Source: Candidatus Poribacteria bacterium (GTDB lineage Bacteria; Poribacteria; WGA-4E; WGA-3G). Taken from it: a stretch of DNA of 64,000 bases. The position numbers were made by a program, and so were the translations under genes. The first letter of the stretch is position 1. Every line of letters starts with the position of its first letter. Below the pieces are notes generated by a model. That model made no database searches. It was not told the DNA's origin and was given only the letters and a program-made list of their open reading frames with translations. The stretch covers positions 1,856,001-1,920,000 of the forward strand of contig OZ240248.1 in NCBI GenBank assembly GCA_965198235.1, read 5' to 3'. Below, piece by piece: positions 1 through 12,550 of this stretch.

Positions 1-61
1 TTCACCAGACACCATCGTGGAACGATGAGCGTTTGGCCATAGTTAGAAAGAAGTAAAAAAA

Positions 62-1447
62 ATGAAAAACACATCCATCGCTTTGATACTTATCGGTAGT
101 CTGCTCTTGGTTTCCGCTAACAGTTATGGAGCGGTTACTTCTGTCGGAGAGATTAACGTCGTAGGCGAAACAGAGGGCATTGTTCCTGCTACTTCGACTG
201 TGCCGCTCATCGTGACGCTTGTAATTGACCGGTCATTGGCAGAGCCGGGCGAAGAAATTAAAACTATTGAGATCATGATGCCGTTCGGATTTCTAACCCA
301 ATCATCCTATTTCAAAGGCATCTCGCGTGACGGAAACCAGATTGTAGCAAGGGCGGTAGTCTCTGGCGGAAGTGTTTTGCGCGTTGAACTCGCAGACGCT
401 ATCGTTGATTTTCAGAATTCGCTCTATGAAATTGTCTTTGAGTGTCAGACACCCAATACGCTTATCTTGGAGGCAGTTTTCAGAGTACGGCTACGTAATC
501 TGCAAGACGGTCCAATCGGTGAATTTATCCGACCGGGGCAGGCAGACGGAAAACTCAACAACGACAATTTTACCTTACAGGTAATTCCGAATGTACCACC
601 TGACCCTGTTATAGGTTTTACCGCTGAACCCGATGGAACCGGAGAAAACGATGTGACGCTACGTTGGCAGAAATCATCAGACCCGGATGTCAGCGGCTAT
701 CTCATCTACAGGGACAAGGAAGATCCTATTAAGGTCGAAAACCGTTCTTCAACGACGTATCGCGATGTAAATGTTCTCCCAGGAAACCATGTCTATCAGA
801 TCACCGCTTACAAGACGCTTTTCTTGCAATCGGAACGTTCGCCAATACAAACGGTGGACGTATCACCGGACACGGCTCCACCAGAGCCCCCGATAATGCT
901 CAGTGTTATTAACTCAAGTGATGGCGTTGAAGTTTTGTGGAAACCGAGCGTCAGTCGTGACGTGATAGCATATCAGGTCTTATTTGGATCGGGGGCCAGT
1001 GAACCTGAGCCTCTCTCCAACGGTGAGATCCGTGAGATAAAAACGGAATATAGATTTATTGATGGTCGTTCTTTGGATACAGGCAGTTTTACTTACGCTG
1101 TCATCGCCATTGACGAGGCAAATAACGAATCCATCCCTGTAGAAAAAAGGCTTCGTATTTTTGACAAACCCTATCCGAACCCTTTTACACCGCTTTCTCC
1201 AGACGAGGATTTCAATCGGGTTGTCTTCCCCGCGCGCGCACTTGAAGAAATATCGGGTGAATTCACGGTGCTCATCTTTGACATTGACGGAATGCTCGTC
1301 AGGACTTTGACCGCACTACCGGGTGAAACGGAGCTGATTTGGGATGGACACGACGAATCCGGTGAAATTGTGGAAAGCGGCGTTTACGTCTATCAACTTC
1401 AAGTGGGAGAGAGTTTTAAGACAGGGACTTTAATTGTTGCGAAGTAG
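62..1447 (+). CDS. Secreted protein with fibronectin type III domains and C-terminal FlgD-Ig-like domain
   Basis: Signal peptide; two FN3-like segments (VTLRWQKSSDPDVSGYLIYR, VEVLWKPSVSRDVIAYQV); C-terminal YPNPFTP...IFDIDGMLVRTL...WDGHDESG...SGVYVYQL. Confidence 0.75.
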   Translation: MKNTSIALILIGSLLLVSANSYGAVTSVGEINVVGETEGIVPATSTVPLIVTLVIDRSLAEPGEEIKTIEIMMPFGFLTQSSYFKGISRDGNQIVARAVVSGGSVLRVELADAIVDFQNSLYEIVFECQTPNTLILEAVFRVRLRNLQDGPIGEFIRPGQADGKLNNDNFTLQVIPNVPPDPVIGFTAEPDGTGENDVTLRWQKSSDPDVSGYLIYRDKEDPIKVENRSSTTYRDVNVLPGNHVYQITAYKTLFLQSERSPIQTVDVSPDTAPPEPPIMLSVINSSDGVEVLWKPSVSRDVIAYQVLFGSGASEPEPLSNGEIREIKTEYRFIDGRSLDTGSFTYAVIAIDEANNESIPVEKRLRIFDKPYPNPFTPLSPDEDFNRVVFPARALEEISGEFTVLIFDIDGMLVRTLTALPGETELIWDGHDESGEIVESGVYVYQLQVGESFKTGTLIVAK

Positions 1448-1562
1448 GGGATGTACATAACATTAAAACGCATCCTCGCAACAGTATGGCGTTTTAATTT
1501 TTTCTCGGTAGGGTTCCTATTGCTTTCAACGTCCCAGTCCCTTGGGTGCTTGGGAAAATGTA

Positions 1563-1597
1563 TTGACTTAATTTCCAATTCAAGGTTATAGTATAAT
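1563..1597 (+). promoter_or_regulatory. Probable sigma70 promoter
   Basis: TTGACT at 1563 followed by overlapping TATAGT/TATAAT about 18-23 nt downstream, upstream of the 1731 gene. Confidence 0.45.
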
Positions 1598-1730
1598 TTT
1601 ATTAGCAAGTCGCTGGGCTTGCTAAACTGCACTACGCTTTATAACGGCAAGTTTTTGGAGATCTGCAAGCTGCACCCAAAAGAATCTGCTGTTAGCACAC
1701 ATTTTTATGAATAAAGGAGATGCAATAACA

Positions 1731-2750
1731 ATGAACAGGCTTGAGTCACGCCTACTAAGAGGAGTAATACTACTCGCGGTCCTCGGCATTTTGGGAGCCG
1801 TTCTACCGGCGTTAGGAAATTGGAGCATTTTACAAGAACGCGATCCAGAAGTTCGGGATTACATGTCAATCGCTTTTACAAGCAAGAGTACCGGTTGGGT
1901 AGTCGGTGCCGCATCCTTTGAAGACTTTGAAAATCCAGGTTTCATCGGATATACCATGGATGGTGGTAAAACGTGGCAAAAATCGGAAATCAAAATTTCT
2001 GCCGATTTGGCAGAAGTGTACTTCCTTGATGATAAACATGGTTGGGCTGTCGGCGCGGACGGTACAATAGTCGGGACGGGTAATGGTAGAGACTGGGAAA
2101 TGCAAACCAGTAAGGTTGGCAACGGACTTAAAGGCATTTATTTTGCTAATAAAGACGTAGGGTACGCAGTAGGAGAAAGTGACACCATTCTCTCTACGAA
2201 AAACGGTGGACGTTCATGGAAGGTGCTCCAAGGCGGACAACTCGGTGCTATTGGCGATGACGATGCAAATATGTACAATGCAATTCAGTTTCTTGACGAA
2301 GAGACTGGATGGATTGCCGGAGTCCGCGTTAGCCCCAGTACACAAGGTCAGCATGCCTTGATCCAGAAAACGATGGATGGTGGACAGACTTGGGTCACAC
2401 AAGGGACCAACAAAGAGGATATCCTTGAAGACATCTTTTTCCTTGATGCATCCATGGGATGGGCGGTCGGTGAAAATGGTGTAATCCTTCACACCACTGA
2501 CGGCGGCGAAACGTGGAAAGAGCAAGTTAGTGGCACAGAAGAAACACTACGAAGTGTCGGGTTTGCAGATGAGAAAAACGGATGGGCTGCCGGTGGAGAC
2601 TTTGGCGTCGGTGCCATCCTACGCACCAGCGATGGCGGCAAAACTTGGGAACTTGAAGATTCCAGAGAAAAATTAGTTAAAGTTTTTGTGCTTGATGGAC
2701 AGAATGTATGGTTAGCAAGTTCTACTGGTGCTATAATGCAGGCAGAATAA
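1731..2750 (+). CDS. YCF48-like / BNR (Asp-box) beta-propeller secreted protein
   Basis: Repeated GWAVG..G.I..T.DGG.TW motifs; signal peptide; AAGGAG upstream of ATG 1731. Confidence 0.8.
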   Translation: MNRLESRLLRGVILLAVLGILGAVLPALGNWSILQERDPEVRDYMSIAFTSKSTGWVVGAASFEDFENPGFIGYTMDGGKTWQKSEIKISADLAEVYFLDDKHGWAVGADGTIVGTGNGRDWEMQTSKVGNGLKGIYFANKDVGYAVGESDTILSTKNGGRSWKVLQGGQLGAIGDDDANMYNAIQFLDEETGWIAGVRVSPSTQGQHALIQKTMDGGQTWVTQGTNKEDILEDIFFLDASMGWAVGENGVILHTTDGGETWKEQVSGTEETLRSVGFADEKNGWAAGGDFGVGAILRTSDGGKTWELEDSREKLVKVFVLDGQNVWLASSTGAIMQAE

Positions 2751-2940
2751 ATAGCCATCAGCAGTCGGCTTTCAGCCTGCTTCGCAGTGAGAACCAGAGC
2801 TCCTTGTGGCAGGTGAAAACGTTCGCAATACCCACAACGATCTACTGGCAACCTTAACCATCAACTCGGGTTTCCTTAACACTTTTATCAATGTGCGAGT
2901 TGATGGTTAAAGCCGATAGCCAATACGCGGAGGTATAATT

Positions 2941-4113
2941 TTGGAAGTATCCACATTCGCGACGCGGATGAGTCGATTAGGCACAGAATCCGCATTTGAA
3001 GTCTTAGCCAAAGCCAAACAACTGGAAGCGCAAGGCAAAGACATCATCCACTTAGAGATAGGGCAGCCGGATTTTCCAACGCCGATTAATATTATTGAGG
3101 CAGCGTACAAAGCGATGAAAGACGGGCATACCGGTTACTGTCCATCTGCTGGTGTACCGGAGTTTCGCGAGGTTATTGCGCAACATATAACCGAGACGCG
3201 GGGCGTTACCATACACCCTGACGAAGTCACGGTAACACCGGGAGCGAAACCTATTATTTTCTTCACTATTTTGGCTTTAATCGATGATGGTGATGAGGTA
3301 ATTTATCCCGAACCCGGTTTCCCCGTCTACGAATCTGTTATCGACTTCATCGGCGGAAATGCCGTACCGCTACTCCTTCGCGAGGAGGTAGACTTCCGAT
3401 TCCGGCTTGACGATCTTGAGGCTGCAATCTCTGACCGGACGAAACTACTGATTCTCAACTCACCTCAGAACCCTACAGGGGGCACGCTAACCGCTGAAGA
3501 CCTTGAGGCAATCGCGGAGCTCGCACAGAAACACAATTTTTATGTGTTGACAGACGAAGTCTATTCACGCATTCTCTATGAAGGTAAACACCACAGCGTC
3601 CTCAGTCTGCCCGGCATGAAGGAACGAACAATTCTGATCGAAGGGCATTCTAAAACTTATGCAATGACAGGATGGCGGTTGGGTTACGGTATTGCCCCCC
3701 AAGCAATCGCTGATAAAATCACACAATTAACTATTAACTCCAACTCCTGTACTGCCACCTTCACACAGCTCGCAGGGATAGAGGCACTGACAGGACAGCA
3801 AACCTCTGTTACCCAGATGGTTTCAGAATTTCAGAAACGACGCGACGCAATTGTAGATGGACTGAATGCAATTGAAGGAGTCAGCTGCATCAAACCGCTC
3901 GGTGCCTTCTATGTGTTTCCCAATGTTACACAGCTGCCGCTTTCGTGTGAAGCACTCGCTGATTATCTCATGGAGGAAGCAGATATTGCCCTATTGCCTG
4001 GTACCTCTTTCGGCAAATATGGTGATGGTTACCTTCGTCTTTCGTATGCCAATTCGTTAGATAATATCCAAGAGGCATTAGACAGAATGGCAACTGCAAT
4101 CTCGAAGTTGTAG
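2941..4113 (+). CDS. PLP-dependent aminotransferase class I/II (aspartate aminotransferase-like)
   Basis: NSPQNPTG, DEVY, SKTYAMTGWRLG (PLP lysine); GGAGG RBS before TTG. Confidence 0.9.
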   Translation: MEVSTFATRMSRLGTESAFEVLAKAKQLEAQGKDIIHLEIGQPDFPTPINIIEAAYKAMKDGHTGYCPSAGVPEFREVIAQHITETRGVTIHPDEVTVTPGAKPIIFFTILALIDDGDEVIYPEPGFPVYESVIDFIGGNAVPLLLREEVDFRFRLDDLEAAISDRTKLLILNSPQNPTGGTLTAEDLEAIAELAQKHNFYVLTDEVYSRILYEGKHHSVLSLPGMKERTILIEGHSKTYAMTGWRLGYGIAPQAIADKITQLTINSNSCTATFTQLAGIEALTGQQTSVTQMVSEFQKRRDAIVDGLNAIEGVSCIKPLGAFYVFPNVTQLPLSCEALADYLMEEADIALLPGTSFGKYGDGYLRLSYANSLDNIQEALDRMATAISKL

Positions 4114-4119
4114 CACTTT

Positions 4120-4246
4120 GTATCAGCTATCAGCCTTCAGCAATCGGCTATCAGCAAAGAGGTTCTCTTTCTCAGACTCTCCCACGCGCTTCAAAAGCTT
4201 TGTATCAGTAGGCGTGGGCGAGTCTGTGCTGACCGCTGACTGCTAT
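4120..4246. repeat. 7-mer-based palindromic repeat (family F3: cagctatcagc...gctgactgct)
   Basis: Tandem heptamers on both arms; related copies at ~2750, 23540-23695, 31880-32005, 43921-44016 (in recG) and 59560-59600. Confidence 0.7.
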
Positions 4247-4266
4247 TCCTGACAGGAATCTCTTGT

Positions 4267-5223
4267 ATGCCTCCTACTTTTAACCGAAAAGCTACCGCGC
4301 GGATCCCAGCAAGCACAACGAATCTGGGACCCGGATTCGACGTGTTAGGGCTCGCTCTTCAGCTCTATAGTACGGTTACGTTAGAACCTTCTGAAACCGA
4401 CACTGAAGTTATTGTGAGCGGCGTAGATGCCGATAAAATACCAAGTACGCCGGCGCATGTCGCGTTTCAAGCGGTAGAACTTGTTTTCCACCGAAGCGAA
4501 GCGAAACGCCCGAAAGGCTTCAGATTGCAGATAGAAAATGGGATACCTGCAATTCGTGGTCTGGGTGGCAGTGGAACAGCCATTCTTGGTGGGTTGCTCA
4601 CTGCAAACGCGCTCTGCGATACTCCATTTTCTGACGCAGAACTCCTCAACTTTGCGACAGAACTGGAAGGGCATCCGGATAACGTCGCCGCCTCATTGTA
4701 TGGTGGACTCGTCGTTTCAGCACAGGAGGATGCTCAGGTTCATACCGTTCGATTAGAATGTCCGTCCCTCCTTTCGATTGTATTGGCAATTCCCGATTTC
4801 CCACTGTCAACAGAACAAGCACGAGGGGTATTACCAACATCAGTGGGTTTTGCAGATGCAATCTACAATACAAGCCGGAGCACACTGCTAATCGCCAGCA
4901 TTGCCACGGGGCAATTTGAAATGTTGCGTGTTGCGATGAAGGATAGGCTGCATCAACCTTACCGGACTTCGCTGATTCCAGGATTTGATGATGTGGCAGA
5001 AGCCGCTACCACCGCTGGGGCACTTAGCGTCGCATTGAGTGGAGCAGGACCAACTGTCGCAGCCTATTGTCTGGAGCACACAGAACAGGTTGCTGAGAAG
5101 ATGCAAGCTGCCTTCAAAAAGCATCAGATCGCTTCTGATATTAAAATTTTGAAGCCGGATGCTCGCGGGGCAATCGTTAGAAAGGTGAATTTTGACGCGA
5201 CTGAGGAGATGTACGATTTTTAA
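4267..5223 (+). CDS. thrB: Homoserine kinase
   Basis: PASTTNLGPGFDVLGLAL, GLGGSG, EGHPDN, DRLHQPYR, LSGAGPT. Confidence 0.95.
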   Translation: MPPTFNRKATARIPASTTNLGPGFDVLGLALQLYSTVTLEPSETDTEVIVSGVDADKIPSTPAHVAFQAVELVFHRSEAKRPKGFRLQIENGIPAIRGLGGSGTAILGGLLTANALCDTPFSDAELLNFATELEGHPDNVAASLYGGLVVSAQEDAQVHTVRLECPSLLSIVLAIPDFPLSTEQARGVLPTSVGFADAIYNTSRSTLLIASIATGQFEMLRVAMKDRLHQPYRTSLIPGFDDVAEAATTAGALSVALSGAGPTVAAYCLEHTEQVAEKMQAAFKKHQIASDIKILKPDARGAIVRKVNFDATEEMYDF

Positions 5224-5387
5224 GACTTTTTATCCGCTCATAATTCAGAGTCGGTTAGACTTAGCCGAAAACCGGGGTCCCCGCCCGTTACTGGGGAAGG
5301 GGTTTTTGATAGGGTATTTCTTCGGATTTCTTCGGATTTCTTCGATGAAACATAGTGGAACGATGTCCAGGTTTTAATAGTTAAAAA
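5183..5387. repeat. Composite repeat (family F1) carrying an A/C-rich modular insert on the minus strand
   Basis: Matches 48468-48510 and 48549-48610; inserted ggggtttttgatagggtatttc(ttcggatttc)2. Confidence 0.7.
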
Positions 5388-5388
5388 C

Positions 5389-8256
5389 ATGTCAAATTTT
5401 CATGCGGAAAACATTGCATCAATACTGAATAAGTTCGATTCCAATATGGATCAGGGGCTGAGTGCCGAAGCCTTTCAGAGGGCGAAAGCACGGCACGGTA
5501 AGAACGAGATGTCCCCAGAGGAAGACGCGTTTCCTTTTAAAGCGTTTCTGAGATCGTTGCTCACGTGGCGTGTGATTGTTTTGGTAGTCGCGACAGTCAT
5601 CCTTGGTGCTTCCTTAGCCAACGGTACAAGCAACGTTACGCTCTATGCAGTAAGCGTTGTCGGAGCAGTTCTGGTTATTCATGCCGTGTCCGCATACATG
5701 ATGGAACACCGCATTCGCAGCCGTGATACCAGCCATAATAGACTCATGGTGCATAGTATCAAGGTTATTCGACAAGGGAAATTAGATGAGTGCGCGCCAG
5801 AGGACATCGTGCCTGGGGACCTACTCCCTTTCAGCGCAGGCGACTATGTGCCTGCTGATGCCAGGATCATTGAATCAGAAGGTCTTATGATTGACGAGTC
5901 TGTGCTCTTTGGCACCGAGGAACCTGTGCAAAAGGTAGGGATAGATATTCAAGATAGTACTTTACCGCCTCAAAAACAGAGAAACATGGCGTTCGGCGGG
6001 ACATATATTGTAGCGGGGCATGGACTTGCAATCGTTGTGCAGACCGGGAGGCAATTGGAAATATGGAAACAACGTCCGGATGCACGTCCAACCCTCGTCG
6101 CGAATACCCTCGCTGAAAGTGAGACAAGAGGTTTATATACGACTATAAAAGTTGTAGGTTTGGTTGTGGGAGGTGTGGTTGTTGCAATCGCGTGGTGGTT
6201 TGAATATCAGAATCATGCTACCGATTGGCAATCTCTAATCCATTTAGGGATGCTATTTGCTGTCGCATCTGCCCCGCAAGATGTGATTCAACTGCTCCGT
6301 TTATTCTTTTCTAAACACGCCCAAAGATTGTTGGAAAAAGGGGTTGTGCTACGAAATTCACGGAGTCTTGAAAAGCTGAGTCGCATTACCACTTTTTTTG
6401 CTAATGAAGACGGACTCTCCACCACACGCTCACTAACAATTTCAAGTCTTTTCGTCGATGAACAACTGGTTGATGGCAAAACATGGAGTGCGTGGTTAAA
6501 TTCTCTCAAAGAGTTGACCCCTGCAGAGCGTCAAAAAGCTATTGAAACAATGTCCCCTGGCGGAAAAATCCCACAGGGTGCCCCGCATTTAGTGTTCACA
6601 GCGGGACTTGGTGCCTCTGATGGGCAGGATACAGACAGTGCCGACCTCTTTAACACACGGACAACTTCAGAAGCCATGTCTTCCGAGATGGGACTGTCCC
6701 CACAGATCGCCCTCCAAGAGGATGTGAAAAAACTCGGCTACCAACTGAAAAGTGTGAAGACTCGACTTCCGTTGGTGAACACGTATCCCTTCACGCGTAA
6801 CTACCGCTATCAAATGCAAGTATTCGAGTCAGCACCAGAAGATTATCTGAATATCATCTTTGGAGATGCCCGAACAGTGCTTGACACCTGCGGTTATGTA
6901 CTCATTAATGGCGAAGCTACACCCTTATCAGACGACAGATACGAAATGTATCATGAAATCATAGACTATCTGATGAGCACTAAAGCACAGGTCTATGGCG
7001 TAGCCTTTCATTCCTCTGATGTTATTCTGAAACCGCAGGAAATGGAGTACAATCCCATCTTTTTAGGGTTTATCAGTTTTTCTGCCAGCAATGATGAACG
7101 AACCAAGGCGATCCTGAAGTCCAGCCTTGATACTGGACTTAAAATTATCCTCATTACTGAAAGCGAGGAGCAAGAAACAGTCGATCTTGCGAAGGATCTT
7201 GGGCTTATCCACAACCGGAAAGCGGTGGTATCAAGGGAGGAACTTGAAAGTGTCTCGCGTGAACAACTCGATAGTGAAACAGCAAAGTGGATTGCTTATT
7301 CGCAACCAACGTGGCATCAGCGTCGAAATATCGTCCTTAGTTTAAAACGTCAAGGACATGCAATAGGATTTCTGGGTCAAAGTAGGGAAGACCTCCGAGC
7401 AATGACCGTTGCGGATATTACACTTGCGAATAGAGTCGATGCATCACATGTTGTGCAAGCCGCAGCCGATGGACTCATTAACAACGGAGGTTTTCAAGCT
7501 GTAAGAGATGTGCTGCTTCATGCTCGCGAGGCGTACCATAACGCCGCCGGTTTTCTACGGTGGAACTTCTCTTGTACACTCTCCCTACTCCTCACGTTGA
7601 CTTTCGGGACGGTACTACACTATCTCTATAAGATGCCTATGCCATTGACGTTAACACAGATAATTTGGACCCAATTTCTTCTGACCCTATTACCCTCATT
7701 AGTTATAGGCACGGAACGGATATTTGCTGATGAGAAGCATCACCGTCCAACGCTGTTTTCGGGATCGCGCTTCCTTTCAAAAACGACAAGCGTAGACATC
7801 GTTTGCCGTGCTGTGACTATTAGTCTGATGACAATCATTCCTTTCTTCTTTATCCTGTGGCGTTCGCCTGCGTTGTCTGACGCATTCGGTGTTTCAACGT
7901 TAATGAGAGATGTCCTTTCCATTGGAGATATGGGGGATCCAAATACTCTGGATATTGCGATCGCGCGAACGGCAGCGTGTACCACGCTTATTTTCACACA
8001 GATGGCTACATGCTGGCAAGCTTTACGTTATCCATGGGAACCACTGGTTCAGAGGGTGCTCGCGAACTTCTCTCTCATCATTATTTCACTTGTCATTATA
8101 GCACTCCATTTAACGACGCTCTATGTCGAACCTGTGACGCAATTTTTAGGAATGGCGCGCCTCGAATGGGAATGGCAATGGGTGCTCCTGTTTAGCCTAA
8201 CATTACTTCTATTGCCGCTGAATTTGGCAATAGGTTCGCGATCGGACGATAATTAA
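5389..8256 (+). CDS. Type II P-type ATPase-like membrane protein, catalytically degenerate
   Basis: VPGD..GD.VPADARI and overall P-type layout with about 10 TM helices; DKTGT, TGES and GDGVND are replaced. Confidence 0.8.
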   Translation: MSNFHAENIASILNKFDSNMDQGLSAEAFQRAKARHGKNEMSPEEDAFPFKAFLRSLLTWRVIVLVVATVILGASLANGTSNVTLYAVSVVGAVLVIHAVSAYMMEHRIRSRDTSHNRLMVHSIKVIRQGKLDECAPEDIVPGDLLPFSAGDYVPADARIIESEGLMIDESVLFGTEEPVQKVGIDIQDSTLPPQKQRNMAFGGTYIVAGHGLAIVVQTGRQLEIWKQRPDARPTLVANTLAESETRGLYTTIKVVGLVVGGVVVAIAWWFEYQNHATDWQSLIHLGMLFAVASAPQDVIQLLRLFFSKHAQRLLEKGVVLRNSRSLEKLSRITTFFANEDGLSTTRSLTISSLFVDEQLVDGKTWSAWLNSLKELTPAERQKAIETMSPGGKIPQGAPHLVFTAGLGASDGQDTDSADLFNTRTTSEAMSSEMGLSPQIALQEDVKKLGYQLKSVKTRLPLVNTYPFTRNYRYQMQVFESAPEDYLNIIFGDARTVLDTCGYVLINGEATPLSDDRYEMYHEIIDYLMSTKAQVYGVAFHSSDVILKPQEMEYNPIFLGFISFSASNDERTKAILKSSLDTGLKIILITESEEQETVDLAKDLGLIHNRKAVVSREELESVSREQLDSETAKWIAYSQPTWHQRRNIVLSLKRQGHAIGFLGQSREDLRAMTVADITLANRVDASHVVQAAADGLINNGGFQAVRDVLLHAREAYHNAAGFLRWNFSCTLSLLLTLTFGTVLHYLYKMPMPLTLTQIIWTQFLLTLLPSLVIGTERIFADEKHHRPTLFSGSRFLSKTTSVDIVCRAVTISLMTIIPFFFILWRSPALSDAFGVSTLMRDVLSIGDMGDPNTLDIAIARTAACTTLIFTQMATCWQALRYPWEPLVQRVLANFSLIIISLVIIALHLTTLYVEPVTQFLGMARLEWEWQWVLLFSLTLLLLPLNLAIGSRSDDN

Positions 8257-8260
8257 CCTG

Positions 8261-10240
8261 CTATACCCAAAACCCGTAAGTGGGAATACCCGCGATAATT
8301 CCTAAGATTGTCCAGAGACTCCCGACTGTAAACTCCCCCAAGATTAGCCCTAAGAAGAAAGGTGCTATCTTGCGATGCCGAATGACACCGCCGTACTGAA
8401 GAATAAGCCACTTGATTAACCAACTCATGAAAAGGCAACTCCACGTAACATTCATACCCCAACTCGTAGAGATAGCGAACCCTGCGGGATGAAATGGCCA
8501 CCAAACGAACCGCATCCGAAAGAACATCAGCACTGTTGTCAGCAGGAACCCAATGCCCATAAATCCACTTTCAGGGATAAGCGTCTCTTCTGGACCTTGC
8601 AACCATCCCGCAAGGCGACGATACGGCTCTATCCCAAAAGCACTCAAGGAGGGCCAGTACGCACGTATTTCCATGCCTAATCGATAACCCCGGTCGATTA
8701 ATGCCCAAAATCCTGCTAATGATCCTAAAATAGTCGCCAGCGTTAAGGCGAAAATGATACGATTCATCGTCATGTTGGTCCGTTCCATGATTTTGAAGCC
8801 TTCGAGCTGGTGTGGCATCGGGTGACTTCGATGTGCACGATTGATGAACCAAAACATCGAAAACATAACGAGGTTGTCTCTCCCCAACTGTCTTGTTCCG
8901 ACAGTGCGCCTCAAAATTTCATCAGGACCTGAGTAGTGCAAGTCATGCACAGGTGTGCCTAATTCGGCGCGCATCCGGGTTATAGCGATGGAGATCATGT
9001 AATAAATAACGAAAAATGCAAACATCACCCAAAGTTCAGCGCCCCCATAGTAGCAAAAAAGCACAAGGAATGCCATCACCCCGATGAGTCCAAGCGTCGC
9101 GCCACGATAGGACATCGGTTCTTGCGTGCTGCCCCCCGAAGCCGTGTTTACGGTATTTTCCTGTTGGGTGTTCAGGCCGAGAGCTGTTTTTGCCACGTGC
9201 AAAAGGTGTCTGCGACTTGCCCAAATAGCTAAAGCGCACAAAGCAAGGTAACCGCCTGATGCCTGCTCATTCATGTAGGGAAAACGGGGTAGACTACGCA
9301 GTCCAAGGGCAGCACCGAGAACCCGCATAAACCGCCAATACCAGAAGAAAAACCAGCATGAAAACGAAAGGTCAAGCGGAATAAAGAAACCGAGCCCGAT
9401 TGCAAACGGGTAGAGTGAAAACGGGATTCTCCCCATAGCGTTCCACGGGCTCTCCGTAAAGATTTGGAAACTTCGCACACGTGTCCGTAGTTCAGGTAAA
9501 ATCGGATACAGAAAGTTAACACCGTTCCACAGAGCAAGCGCACCAGCAATCCCAAAACCGAGCCACATCAATTTATTCTGAAAGAGGCGATTCTGTGGCG
9601 TTTCTGTCAATTGGAGTGGGAGTTGAATGATGGGGTAACTTAATTTCTCATGTTCGATCCATTGTTTACGAACAATTATATTGATGCAAAGCATGCCGAA
9701 AATCAACACAGTAATAAAGGCAGTCCACCAGAGTACAGGGGTTGCCCAACCGAGCAATGTTTCAACTGTGTAGAGGGGTAGCTCACCCTCATAATAGCCG
9801 AGTAAAAGGGACGGGTCGCTAACGGTGAGCCACTTTGGTAGGAACGGAACAAACAGCTGTTGCCACTCATTTTCTGGAGTAGCAAAGCGAGAGGCATGCC
9901 CTAACATTGGCACCAAGATCTCGAGCATATCGTGACCCGTAATTCCCGAAGCGATGGAAAGCATTAGGTAAACAATGACTAACTCGCTTTGTGCCAGTGC
10001 TAAGTTCGGGACAAAACGACGCAACAGGTAGTTTACACCGATAACCATGAACAGACTGAAAATCACATTGAAAAAGAGGGATATTGTTACAGGGTGACCT
10101 GAATACCGAATAACCTCCATCTCAATAACCCAGTAGCAGTTAATCGGTATTAGAATAACAGCAATAAGAATAGATTTGAGCGTGACACCGTGGGCAGGGA
10201 TTTGTGATGATGTTGGCAAAGAGGAAGTTTCAACTTCCAT
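8261..10240 (-). CDS. DUF6785/DUF6784-type polytopic membrane protein (putative peptide transporter)
   Basis: LxQxELxxVY, RKQWIEHEKLSYPIIQLP, IPLDLSFSCWFF, RMRAELG, WWPFHPAG, PFFLGLILGE; start taken at MEVETSS. Confidence 0.7.
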   Translation of the reverse strand: MEVETSSLPTSSQIPAHGVTLKSILIAVILIPINCYWVIEMEVIRYSGHPVTISLFFNVIFSLFMVIGVNYLLRRFVPNLALAQSELVIVYLMLSIASGITGHDMLEILVPMLGHASRFATPENEWQQLFVPFLPKWLTVSDPSLLLGYYEGELPLYTVETLLGWATPVLWWTAFITVLIFGMLCINIIVRKQWIEHEKLSYPIIQLPLQLTETPQNRLFQNKLMWLGFGIAGALALWNGVNFLYPILPELRTRVRSFQIFTESPWNAMGRIPFSLYPFAIGLGFFIPLDLSFSCWFFFWYWRFMRVLGAALGLRSLPRFPYMNEQASGGYLALCALAIWASRRHLLHVAKTALGLNTQQENTVNTASGGSTQEPMSYRGATLGLIGVMAFLVLFCYYGGAELWVMFAFFVIYYMISIAITRMRAELGTPVHDLHYSGPDEILRRTVGTRQLGRDNLVMFSMFWFINRAHRSHPMPHQLEGFKIMERTNMTMNRIIFALTLATILGSLAGFWALIDRGYRLGMEIRAYWPSLSAFGIEPYRRLAGWLQGPEETLIPESGFMGIGFLLTTVLMFFRMRFVWWPFHPAGFAISTSWGMNVTWSCLFMSWLIKWLILQYGGVIRHRKIAPFFLGLILGEFTVGSLWTILGIIAGIPTYGFWV

Positions 10241-10434
10241 TTTTCTAACTATGGGCCTCCGTTCTGCCCTCCACTGCGTTTCGGGCAGGTTTCTGGTCAT
10301 GTCGCGGTCGCTTTGAAAATTTGTACGAGGTTTAACGAGAAAATTTAGCACTGGTTTGCTTTGTCGCTGAAGTTTTAGAATCATCATAGCGACCGCCACA
10401 AACGCCCGACCGCCATCTGTGAATATCTCCAGAT

Positions 10435-10464
10435 AAATTTATCACAAATTTTACAACATGTCAA
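10435..10464 (-). promoter_or_regulatory. sigma70 promoter for the DUF6785 gene
   Basis: Reverse strand TTGACA-17-TAAATT. Confidence 0.5.
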
Positions 10465-10634
10465 TTTAAAATCTCTTGTACTTCTTAATCTGCCGATTGA
10501 TTTGAAGTCGCTGAGCACCAAGTTGCTTCGGCATAAAATAGACTTTTCTTAATAACTTTTCCGTGTTATGATTACTGCAATATGAGCTTGCAGATTGTGC
10601 CTAAATTGCATCTGTAACAACTCAGGATACACAT

Positions 10635-10869
10635 GTCAGTAACCCAACCTTAAAAGGTTGGGCTTGTGCGAAGCGTAGCCAAACGTCCACTCCACAGGAC
10701 TAAACTACTGACTACAGGTCGCCTAAACCCGTGGCGATATTAATAACGGGTTTACTGTAGATCTCGTTTGCAGGCGCGAGAAAAAATAATGCCTGCACTT
10801 TTCAAAACCAAAAGGAGGCGGTTTTTCCTCCCACTCCTAAAGGGTTGGGTTTCCAAACCGCAAAACTTG
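10635..10869 (+). mobile_element. Non-autonomous IS200/IS605-family element with omegaRNA/HEARO-like 5' end
   Basis: Starts GTCAGTAACCCAACCTTAAAAGGTTGGGCTTG with complementary TACTGAC downstream; ends TTCCTCCCACTCCTAAAGGGTTGGGTTTCC...CTTG followed by ATGA; no nuclease ORF. Confidence 0.65.
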
Positions 10870-11673
10870 ATGAAGCCATTCCACTATATTAAAAATCGAG
10901 TTGAAAGATTTTTTTACAATGCTTATCAGCGGCGCTTGGAATCCGAAGCCAATGCGTGGAACATCCCACGCCATATCGGTGTAATTTTAGATGGAAATCG
11001 TCGCTATGCTAAAGCCAGTGGACTTGACGATATCATTGAAGGGCACCATGAGGGCGCGGACAAGCTCGAAGAGGTACTCCATTGGTGCGACGAACTCGGC
11101 GTTGAAATTTTTTCAATCTGGATTTTCTCGCTTGATAATTTCAAACGTGCAGCACATGAAGTTGAAGGAATTCTTGGGCTTATTGAGGGAAAAATGCGGG
11201 AACTTGTCACAATTAAGGGACTCCATAGGAACCGGATCAAAGTGCGTGCGATGGGGCAGATAGAACTGTTACCACCCAGTCTGCAAGAAGCGATTCGGGA
11301 GGCGGAAGAAGCGACGCAACATTACGACAAGTTTATCTTAAATGTCGCTGTTGCTTATGGTGGGCGAGAAGAAATTATTGAAGCATTTCGGGGGCACCTG
11401 AAAGCCGAAAGTGAAAGCGGTAAACCTGCCCATCAAATTGCAGACGAACTCACAGTGGACAAGATTACACCCTACCTTTACACTTCAAACCTCCCCGATC
11501 CTGAGTTAATCATTCGCACCAGCGGTGAGGTCCGGTTATCAGGGTTTTTGCTCTGGCAGAGCGTTTACTCAGAATTCTATTTCTGCGATACGTACTGGCC
11601 CTCATTTCGGAAGATCGACTTTCTCCGTGCTTTGCGTGCTTATAGCCAACGAAAACGACGATTTGGACAATAA
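10870..11673 (+). CDS. uppS: cis-isoprenyl diphosphate synthase (UppS family)
   Basis: PRHIGVILDGNRR, FSLDNFKR, YGGREEI, DPELIIRTSGEVRLSGFLLWQ. Confidence 0.9.
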   Translation: MKPFHYIKNRVERFFYNAYQRRLESEANAWNIPRHIGVILDGNRRYAKASGLDDIIEGHHEGADKLEEVLHWCDELGVEIFSIWIFSLDNFKRAAHEVEGILGLIEGKMRELVTIKGLHRNRIKVRAMGQIELLPPSLQEAIREAEEATQHYDKFILNVAVAYGGREEIIEAFRGHLKAESESGKPAHQIADELTVDKITPYLYTSNLPDPELIIRTSGEVRLSGFLLWQSVYSEFYFCDTYWPSFRKIDFLRALRAYSQRKRRFGQ

Positions 11674-11782
11674 AAGATAGACAGTAAAAATTCGACATAG
11701 CACTGCTAATCACTAACGGTTAAAATTTATTCCATCTGTGTATTCCAATTCCGTTGACAGATAGGTGAGAAGGAGCAAGCAC

Positions 11783-12550
11783 ATGAGATTTGGGGTTTGT
11801 ACAGGTTTAGAGAATGTCAATCGACTCGCAGAAGTTGGATATGACTACATTGAATTAGGCGTGCGTCCGGGGTTGATGCCTGAAGCGGATGAGGCTGAAT
11901 TCCAGAAAATTCGTGAACAGGTAGCGGAAGCACCGTTAAAGGCGGAGTCGTACTCCGGATTCATCCCCGGTGACCTGCGTGTGGTAGGCGATACAGTGGA
12001 TTTCCCACGCCTGTCACGCTATGTAGAGACCGCGTGTCGCAGAGGTAGTGAAATTGGCGGTGAAGTTATCGTCTACGGCAGCAGCGGTTCCCGGAGTATA
12101 GAAGAAGGCTATTCGCGCGAACGTGCATTGGCACAAATTGCTGAATTCCTCGATATGGCGGCAGATCATGCCGAAGCGCACAACATGACGATTGTCATCG
12201 AACCAATTTGCTGGCGAGAGGGCAATATCCTTCGGACCGTCGCAGATGGACTCGCTATGGCAAAACGCGTGAATCGTCCGGGTATCAAGGCGTTGGCAGA
12301 TCTCTATCACATCTATCAGGAAGAAGAACCGATGCAAAACATCATCGACGCTGCTGAGTGGCTCGCGCATGTCCACATAGCGGAACCGATCAAGCGTTCC
12401 TATCCCGGAAACGACGATTTCGATTTCACAGATTTCTTCACGGCACTACAAAAAGCGGGCTATGACGGTCGAGTCTCGTGTGAGTGCAAATTTGACAATT
12501 TTGATGAGGATGTTGAGGTAGCTTTGGAAACCATGAAAGCTTATATCTAA
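11783..12550 (+). CDS. Sugar phosphate isomerase/epimerase (xylose isomerase-like TIM barrel)
   Basis: GYDYIEL, IVIEP, DLYH, HVHIAE, GYDGRVSCE. Confidence 0.85.
   Translation: MRFGVCTGLENVNRLAEVGYDYIELGVRPGLMPEADEAEFQKIREQVAEAPLKAESYSGFIPGDLRVVGDTVDFPRLSRYVETACRRGSEIGGEVIVYGSSGSRSIEEGYSRERALAQIAEFLDMAADHAEAHNMTIVIEPICWREGNILRTVADGLAMAKRVNRPGIKALADLYHIYQEEEPMQNIIDAAEWLAHVHIAEPIKRSYPGNDDFDFTDFFTALQKAGYDGRVSCECKFDNFDEDVEVALETMKAYI

Follow-up and report, generated by a model that had tools for sequence, protein, structure and literature searches.

What becomes of an ion pump whose catalytic residues have been replaced, and could such a protein still be maintained by selection? The question is raised by a gene in a 64,000-nucleotide (nt) stretch of DNA from Candidatus Poribacteria (assembly GCA_965198235.1, contig OZ240248.1, positions 1,856,001-1,920,000, forward strand), which we call the window and whose coordinates are used throughout. 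The gene encodes a P2A-like P-type ATPase of 955 amino acids (aa) with altered catalytic motifs, referred to here as the pseudo-pump. It is the aspartyl-phosphate cycle that defines P-type ATPases, and a stand-alone member maintained across a phylum without that cycle would show a non-pumping use of the fold. An initial annotation had proposed a maintained pseudo-enzyme (a scaffold, a sensor, a passive channel or a regulatory partner of an active pump) rather than a decaying pseudogene. Judging from the comparisons of sequence and predicted structure described below, the pseudo-pump probably descends from a P2A pump, has lost catalysis and is nonetheless maintained.

A P-type ATPase fold with altered motifs

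The gene itself is the following.

5389..8256, + strand: pseudo-P-type ATPase (P2A-like), complete coding sequence, 955 aa plus stop, ATG start, from the list of open reading frames (ORFs)

Both fold and homology assign the protein to the superfamily of P-type ATPases, as found with Pfam, phmmer against the PDB, AlphaFold2 (AF2) and Foldseek. It matches the Pfam families E1-E2_ATPase (PF00122), Cation_ATPase_N (PF00690) and Cation_ATPase_C (PF00689), and weakly Cation_ATPase (PF13246); Pfam gave no match to the Hydrolase/HAD (haloacid dehalogenase) family, and found no fused effector domain, the protein being stand-alone. The closest solved structures by sequence are human SPCA1 (8iww) and Listeria LMCA1 (6zhf), at E ~1e-45. 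The AF2 model, built from an input alignment of 64 rows, has a predicted local distance difference test score (pLDDT) of 84 and a predicted TM-score (pTM) of 0.76, and contains ten long helices at the positions of transmembrane (TM) helices M1-M10, as the annotation had supposed in calling the TM helices intact, together with the actuator (A), phosphorylation (P) and nucleotide-binding (N) domains. Foldseek matched this model over its full length to Na,K-ATPase, SERCA and SPCA1 with a probability of 1.00, and the highest TM-scores, 0.73-0.77, were to E1-type states of SPCA1 and SERCA, which is a property of the model and not of a physiological state. Look-alikes in the ESM Atlas were canonical bacterial Ca2+-ATPase clusters only, and offered no functional lead. 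The sole internal disordered loop of the model, acidic, rich in Ser/Thr and with pLDDT <50, lies in the N domain (aa 412-435, nt 6622-6693) and is poorly conserved, conservation within the genus being lowest at aa 421-450.

The curated NCBIfam models give another view of how far the protein has moved from its relatives. All 18 of the P-type models that match it do so below their cut-offs: the best, TIGR01522 (PMR1-type), reaches 208 bits against a cut-off of 798.3, TIGR01116 reaches 129.7 bits against 703.4, and the generic P-type model TIGR01494 reaches 62.2 bits against 62.3.

We took the correspondence of motifs from a HMMER alignment to SPCA1 8iww and from a multiple alignment that includes about 60 canonical representatives. 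The former pairs ffaNEDGLst with icsDKTGTlt, lFGTEep with lTGEttp, saPQDVi with aiPEGLp, liTESee with miTGDsq and flGQSREDlra with mtGDGVNDava, and the latter confirms all seven correspondences, including those of FGDAR with KGAPE and of ASND with DPPR. The motifs, all on the + strand, are as follows.

5908..5919, +: FGTE for TGES (dephosphorylation loop), aa 174-177; F174 in 121/121 close homologs
6274..6285, +: PQDV for PEGL (M4 ion-site loop), aa 296-299; Pro kept, Glu lost
6403..6417, +: NEDGL for DKTGT (former phosphorylation site), aa 339-343; HMMER alignment
6859..6873, +: FGDAR for KGAPE (ATP-binding Lys lost), aa 491-495; multiple alignment
7084..7095, +: ASND for DPPR, aa 566-569; multiple alignment
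7156..7164, +: TES for TGD, aa 590-592; HMMER and multiple alignment
7375..7392, +: GQSRED for GDGVND, aa 663-668; first Asp lost, last Asp (D668) kept

The reading frame, its length, the seven replaced motifs and the placing of NEDGL at about 6403-6417 had all been given in the annotation, and the ORF list and the alignments agree with each of them. Its further statement that every motif is replaced is true in the sense that all seven are altered, and needs qualifying in that single structural residues survive within them (G175, P296, G342, G492, T590, G663 and D668).

Consistent with its sequence matches, of which TIGR01522 is the top model, and with TM-scores of up to 0.77, the pseudo-pump shares with the P2A Ca2+/Mn2+-ATPases (LMCA1, SPCA1/PMR1 and SERCA) the same order of domains (N-terminal, A, P, N), ten TM helices, and many structural Gly, Pro and A-domain core residues. 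It differs from them in lacking what the enzyme works with: the phosphorylated Asp of DKTGT, the Glu of TGES, the Lys of KGAPE, the Mg2+ and phosphate ligands of TGD and GDGVND (the first Asp of the latter among them), and DPPR. Within the genus Asn stands at the former phosphorylation site, which amounts to the D->N change classically used for inactivation. The ligands for cations are gone as well, with Q297 in place of the M4 PEGL Glu, Q762 in place of the M6 Asn and T766 in place of the M6 Asp, so that neither these ligands nor an NCBIfam equivalog score identifies a P2A Ca2+-ATPase; the protein lies far under the curated family cut-offs, and is the sole P2-type gene of its lineage. Several replacements in the catalytic pocket are hydrophobic (T to F174, K to F491, T to L343 and M to F661).

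Conservation, distribution and selection

A word-indexed protein search found 335 proteins at E <= 1e-10, and the best 120 of these, with 63-91 % identity, lengths of 921-982 aa and Candidatus Poribacteria as every named source, were aligned with the query (n=121). At position 339 this set has N in 119 members, T in one and H in one, with Asp in none. The Thr of TGES is Phe (F174) and the Lys of KGAPE is Phe (F491) in 121/121, as are the changes of the TGD Gly to Glu (E591) and of the M6 Asn to Gln (Q762). D668, the last Asp of GDGVND, is likewise kept in 121/121, and P296 is invariant. Other columns vary among non-canonical residues, the Glu of TGES being represented by T, A, S or I, the M6 Asp by Thr, Ser or Ile, and position 297 by Q, H, Y, G, S, D or A, with Glu in 0 of the 121. 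Since several substitutions are fixed across these homologs, the replacement motifs are themselves conserved.

To follow the family outwards, 20 diverse loci were aligned with representatives from an exhaustive HMMER search (20,901 matches at E <= 0.001). All seven motifs are degenerate in every member from the order and in syntenic members from three further families of the class, and canonical proteins, with LTGES, PEGL, DKTGT, KGAPE, DPPR, TGD and GDGVND, begin only at about 25 % identity (P0133 onward). The old catalytic site differs by lineage (genera and families are given by our labels): it reads NExGL in genera g1, g3, g4 and g5, DE[KQ]GI in g2, NEIG in g7 and g10, DE[IV]G in most of families f2 and f3, QQ in f4, EH in f7 and DPxG in f5. 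A 64-row maximum-likelihood tree puts 32 degenerate rows on one side of a branch with a Shimodaira-Hasegawa-like approximate likelihood ratio (SH-aLRT) support of 100, and the gene tree tracks the taxonomic families.

Within a clade of 30 members, the Lys of DKTGT, the Lys of KGAPE, the first Asp of GDGVND and the M6 Asp are each found in 0/30, and the last Asp of GDGVND is kept in 28/30. Members have D (14), N (9), E (5) or Q (2) at the old catalytic position, a distribution for which the tree requires no fewer than 7 changes. As read from these alignments, a site that toggles in this way is unlike a catalytic nucleophile, even where Asp persists.

Another way to view the divergence is by the columns that canonical pumps hold constant. 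A set of 63 canonical representatives conserves 113 columns to 90 % or more, of which the pseudo-clade keeps 43 and has lost 70 (P domain 39, M3-M4 9, M5-M10 8, A domain 6, N domain 6 and M1-M2 2). The A domain holds 18 of the 43 kept columns, and likewise 18 of the 41 columns that are conserved class-wide and shared with canonical pumps. Only five residues are conserved class-wide in the clade and not in canonical pumps (D357, W725, L755, R807 and P943), and 23 such residues appear at the level of the order, including F174, G660, F661, Q690, G701, D803, R807 and R880. Absolute entropies are not comparable between the canonical and pseudo sets, the former covering more phyla; within the order, entropy is lowest in M6, the membrane part of M5, the A-domain core and M8, and M1-M2 is the most variable part. 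The least variable segments carry polar uncharged motifs, namely RW.LSC (M5), W[VI][QH] (M6) and CT.LIF.Q (M8).

The gene is nearly universal in its order, where it is single-copy, and it occurs in almost every sampled genome of the phylum. We surveyed 151 genomes sampled across the phylum, the window's own included, with a match threshold of E <= 1e-20, and found a match in 149/151 and in 131/131 of the high-quality ones, the two misses being 79 % and 81 % complete. Among the other genomes of the order's four families the count was 138/139 (f1 98/99, f2 10/10, f3 26/26, f4 4/4). Each match is one open frame, of roughly 910-990 codons, and the identities run from 93 % down to about 27-32 %. 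We considered whether the flags '1 TAG' on 16 rows of genus g9 and '2 TGA' on two f6 rows marked broken or recoded genes, and rejected this. Frames extracted from loci of the flagged type are uninterrupted (916-918 codons in seven of the g9 type, 915 in L051) and align nearly end to end, and on the simplest reading the flagged stops would be the natural terminator, overrun by the alignment.

The relatives that were aligned from other phyla are intact pumps. A scan of one genome per prokaryotic species with a single A-domain peptide pattern, which by design sees only relatives that carry the pattern and would miss degenerate ones elsewhere that do not, yielded 80 loci that were kept. The 24 with at least 31 % identity are all degenerate, with DKTGT in 0/24; 22 are titled Poribacteria and two are metagenome-assembled genomes (MAGs) titled 'uncultured bacterium'. 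Of the other 56, from many bacterial and archaeal phyla, 54 had a frame of sufficient length for alignment, and 54/54 have an intact DKTG core. Thus DKTGT has not been retained in the close orthologs, by the count of Asp in the alignment of the query and the best 120 of 335 (0/121) or by the count of the motif in the Poribacteria-type loci (0/24).

Nor does the order appear to hold an active relative of the same type. The window's genome has two PF00122 matches, which are the pseudo-pump and a CopA-type P1B pump 1.5 Mb away (TIGR01525, 621 bits), and in a 61-genome sample of the order the number of PF00122 matches per genome is 1-4 (2-4 in 60/61). PF00689, the C-terminal domain of P2/P3-type pumps, has exactly one match in each of the 61 genomes, always in the pseudo-pump, and the order's sole P2-type gene is therefore the degenerate one. 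Public records label the proteins 'Ca2+-transporting ATPase' or 'cation-transporting P-type ATPase'. With a pseudo-pump as the sole P2/P3-type gene in 61/61 genomes and with labels of this kind in circulation, metabolic reconstructions of Poribacteria, prominent sponge symbionts included, are probably wrong on Ca2+ efflux, crediting these bacteria with an efflux pump that is absent.

Gene order gives separate evidence of orthology, since it is independent of the tree. The pseudo-pump lies directly downstream of thrB (homoserine kinase) on the same strand in 16/20 diverse loci, and upstream of thrB there is an aminotransferase gene and usually then a Ycf48-like BNR gene, making a block of BNR, aminotransferase, thrB and pseudo-pump. 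This synteny extends to copies of 22-25 % identity in families f5 and f7. The gap between thrB and the pseudo-pump ranges from 7 to 239 nt across loci.

We used the ratio of nonsynonymous to synonymous substitution rates (dN/dS, by the Nei-Gojobori method, from 30 orthologs of the window's genus and 138 pairs with dS 0.3-0.6) to examine how selection acts on the gene and on its parts, of which the following are needed here.

5734..6093, +: actuator (A) domain, aa 116-235; dN/dS 0.09, the most constrained cytoplasmic domain; low entropy
6445..7074, +: homolog of the nucleotide-binding (N) domain, aa 353-562, by AF2 secondary structure; dN/dS 0.15
7534..8253, +: M5-M10 membrane block, aa 716-955; M5 motif RW.LSC; M6 Q762 and T766 (nt 7672-7686)

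For the whole gene dN/dS is 0.15, against 0.083 for thrB in the same genomes. Besides the values listed for the A and N domains, it is 0.08 in the segment around the old phosphorylation site, 0.14 in the remaining P domain, 0.135 in M5-M10, 0.20 in M3-M4 and 0.29 in M1-M2. In three further lineages, which all have Asp at the old phosphorylation site, the values are 0.08-0.15 (21 pairs), 0.07-0.13 and 0.21-0.27. The gene is under purifying selection in all lineages tested, somewhat relaxed compared with its housekeeping neighbour.

The orthologs, the dN/dS values and the open frames together uphold the annotation in its central claim of a maintained pseudo-enzyme: a dN/dS near 1 or frequent stops would be expected of a decaying gene, and what we find is 0.15 and no internal stops in the examined frames. 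Homology to an enzyme family, loss of the catalytic residues and purifying selection across species are the marks of a pseudoenzyme and are all present, and by its sequence the protein is classed as a P-type-fold pseudoenzyme and not as a Ca2+-ATPase. A reading as a pseudogene in decay, or as an open frame that arose by chance, for which one could cite the loss of all catalytic motifs and an evolution faster than that of the neighbours, is effectively refuted by frames of 909-988 codons that stay open throughout the order at identities as low as about 27-35 %, by dN/dS of 0.07-0.27 in four lineages and by the confident AF2 fold.

Some further degenerate or partly degenerate proteins were seen in passing. 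P0127, P0128, P0130, P0140 and P0164 are degenerate P2-like metagenomic representatives, of which P0140 and P0164 group with family f5 and P0130 stands apart on a long branch. A locus from another class of the phylum (L052, genome G002, frame ~5972-8850) encodes a second, partly degenerate P2-type protein with NKKG at the phosphorylation site; it keeps KGSVE, DHPR and GDSAND, does not lie beside thrB, branches next to canonical pumps, and may be an independent or younger inactivation. Two otherwise canonical P2 pumps, L096 (an Acutalibacteraceae MAG) and P0137, have altered A-domain loops, LTSVE and LTSDT for LTGES, and altered P-domain motifs, DKTGVF with GDGVED in L096 and DKTGML with GDGIRD in P0137. 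Going by these sequences, partial erosion of the motifs may also occur outside Poribacteria.

Candidate roles for the pseudo-pump

If catalysis has been lost, what could the protein be kept for? The course of events that we propose begins with vertical inheritance from the lineage's only P2A-type (Ca2+/Mn2+-pump-like) ATPase, followed by loss of the phosphoryl-transfer chemistry, the nucleotide contacts and the cation ligands, with the full-length membrane protein retained. The product would function without ATP turnover or an aspartyl-phosphate cycle, as a membrane-anchored scaffold or a module sensing a ligand or partner that reuses the coupling of headpiece to membrane. Constraint on the A domain, on the old phosphorylation segment and on the M5-M6-M8 core, together with the few newly conserved residues, favours a structural or conformational role, and we tentatively prefer an ATP-independent scaffold or sensor, while giving it a little under an even chance.

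The M5-M6-M8 core now carries family motifs that are polar and uncharged, and from this a more specific proposal can be built, which we hold to be possible, if rather doubtful. The pump fold would have been reused across the phylum as an ATP-independent transceptor or gated permeation module, with its cation pocket made anew of polar residues without charge (M5 Ser-Cys, M6 Gln/His, M8 Cys-Thr...Gln) and binding a new ligand or substrate, and with A-domain/M5 coupling signalling to a silent headpiece. If this is true, it would be the first case of a bacterial pseudo-pump that stands alone and has its own function.

The main rival to a scaffold or sensor is passive permeation, the passive channel of the annotation, in which the M4-M6-M8 core, as a channel or uniporter that the headpiece may gate, would let some substrate that is not a hard cation pass without ATP. 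The invariance of P296, which makes the helix break in M4, suits such a role, as does the fact that M6, M8 and the part of M5 in the membrane are among the least variable segments and carry polar uncharged motifs at the old ion sites; the AF2 model also resembles the palytoxin-opened Na,K-ATPase 9vj0 (TM-score 0.72), although this similarity is no greater than that to ordinary E1 states. The loss of every acidic ligand (M6 Asp in 0/30, M4 Glu variable) makes a route by way of the old cation site less likely. M1-M2, which lines the cytoplasmic entry in pumps, is the most variable part, with dN/dS 0.29, and a simple pore would leave the strong constraint on the A domain unexplained. We regard permeation as unlikely on balance.

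Pseudoenzymes often regulate their active relatives, and on that general ground the pseudo-pump might serve an active pump as a subunit, regulatory or structural, which the annotation had also suggested. Genomes of the order do have 1-3 other P-type ATPases with P1B- or KdpB-sized frames (PF00122 being matched 2-4 times in 60/61). However, a P2/P3-type paralog is present in 0/61 genomes, which makes regulation of an active paralog unlikely, the other pump of the window's genome is of the CopA type and 1.5 Mb away, and no pump gene is among the conserved neighbours. This part of the annotation is thus weakened, and we think a subunit role improbable.

Could the protein instead be an ATP-driven transporter with non-canonical chemistry? 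The precedent is ERMA/TMEM94, a eukaryotic endoplasmic reticulum (ER) protein with DKQGI at the phosphorylation loop, no TGES and a replaced GDGVND, for which Asp-dependent Mg2+ transport is reported (PMC13322241). ERMA is also reported to keep acidic residues in its membrane pocket. Compared at the level of the superfamily, the likeness to the pseudo-pump comprises the P-type architecture, a non-canonical phosphorylation loop, the replaced GDGVND and the missing TGES; ERMA differs in keeping Asp-Lys and an acidic pocket, where the loop of the pseudo-pump reads Asn-Glu and its membrane part holds no acidic ligands. The reported activity of ERMA, the Asp at the site in 14/30 clade members and D668 in 28/30, and the purifying selection on all cytoplasmic domains could be taken to favour such chemistry. 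Set against this, the site is Asn in 119/121 (query and best 120 of 335), and D->N is the substitution used to kill SERCA, Na,K-ATPase and ERMA itself (PMC13322241). Moreover, none of the 30 clade members has the Lys next to the site, the Lys of KGAPE or the first, Mg2+-binding Asp of GDGVND; the residue at the site switches among D, N, Q and E no fewer than 7 times, and there is no HAD/Hydrolase match in Pfam. We therefore consider ATP-driven transport highly improbable.

Returning to a dead pump maintained as a scaffold or sensor, several observations weigh against it. The gene evolves faster than its neighbours: at locus L033 identity is 85 % for the aminotransferase, 69 % for thrB and 44 % for the pseudo-pump, and at L048 the corresponding values are 68 %, 47 % and 25 %. 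Its dN/dS is about twice that of thrB, so that constraint is relaxed relative to this housekeeping neighbour. The groups in the tree were set by the state of the motifs, and attraction between long branches may play a part. Asp still occupies the former phosphorylation site in 14/30 members of the clade, and the reported precedent of ERMA/TMEM94 (PMC13322241) means that motif loss is by itself no proof of inactivity. The conserved polar core of M5, M6 and M8 suits a permeation or ligand site equally with a scaffold, and a positive function is read from conservation alone. On the side in favour, transcription is hinted at by contigs from four RNA-library runs that cover most of the gene at >=95 % identity (23-29/30 bins covered across 7.6 kb); these contigs are unstranded and come from one sponge-metagenome study, one of them spans the junction of convergent genes, and carry-over of DNA is possible.

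A parallel for retention of a P-type module after such losses is found in eukaryotes. The flippase module of the alveolate P4-ATPase-guanylate cyclase chimeras (P4GC) has an altered DKTGT Asp and A-domain Glu in Cryptosporidium, P4GC-beta, gregarines and Tetrahymena, and the authors of that work raise a possible loss of ATPase activity, the module being retained (PMC13466520). Both cases share a P-type module kept despite altered Asp and Glu; P4GC differs in being a eukaryotic P4 type with a fused effector cyclase, and so with an obvious job, whereas the Poribacteria protein is bacterial, P2A-derived and stand-alone. In the full-text literature, with subscription-only papers not covered, we found neither the Poribacteria protein nor any bacterial family of inactive P-type ATPases described, and a term search of a 2023 review by Palmgren (PMC10654040) gave nothing relevant on inactive or pseudo members. 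A pseudo-pump of this kind would offer a natural 'dead' scaffold with which to separate the structural from the catalytic roles of the fold.

Neighbouring genes and spacers

The genes and the spacer around the pseudo-pump in the window are these.

1707-2750, +: BNR/Ycf48-like protein (photosystem II assembly factor-like), 105 bits against a Ycf48 equivalog cut-off of 326
2941..4113, +: class I/II aminotransferase (aspartate-aminotransferase-like), member of the conserved block
4267..5223, +: thrB (homoserine kinase), immediate upstream neighbour; TIGR00191, 279 bits against a cut-off of 168
5224..5388, +: spacer between thrB and the pseudo-pump, 165 nt, with a terminator-like hairpin at 5278-5297
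8261..10399, -: DUF6785/DUF6784 multi-pass membrane protein, 712 aa, convergent; 546.8 and 118.1 bits

The hairpin at 5278-5297 is only a hint of a terminator, terminator-like sites being no commoner in a promoter and terminator scan than in shuffled sequence, and an Rfam scan of window positions 1-12000 gave no match. Downstream, the stop codons of the pseudo-pump and of the convergent DUF6785/DUF6784 gene are 4 nt apart. The product of the latter has no NCBIfam match, and the gene lies downstream in the five family-f1 loci examined and not in other families. The Ycf48-like gene of the conserved block sits in a presumably non-photosynthetic bacterium.

The RNA-library contigs also bear on the spacers. 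Contigs of three of the runs skip 101 or 121 nt in the spacer between the aminotransferase gene and thrB (4133-4255), and several loose contig ends gather at 4160-4233 and 5258-5302. Between co-occurring strains whose coding parts match, both intergenic spacers appear to differ.

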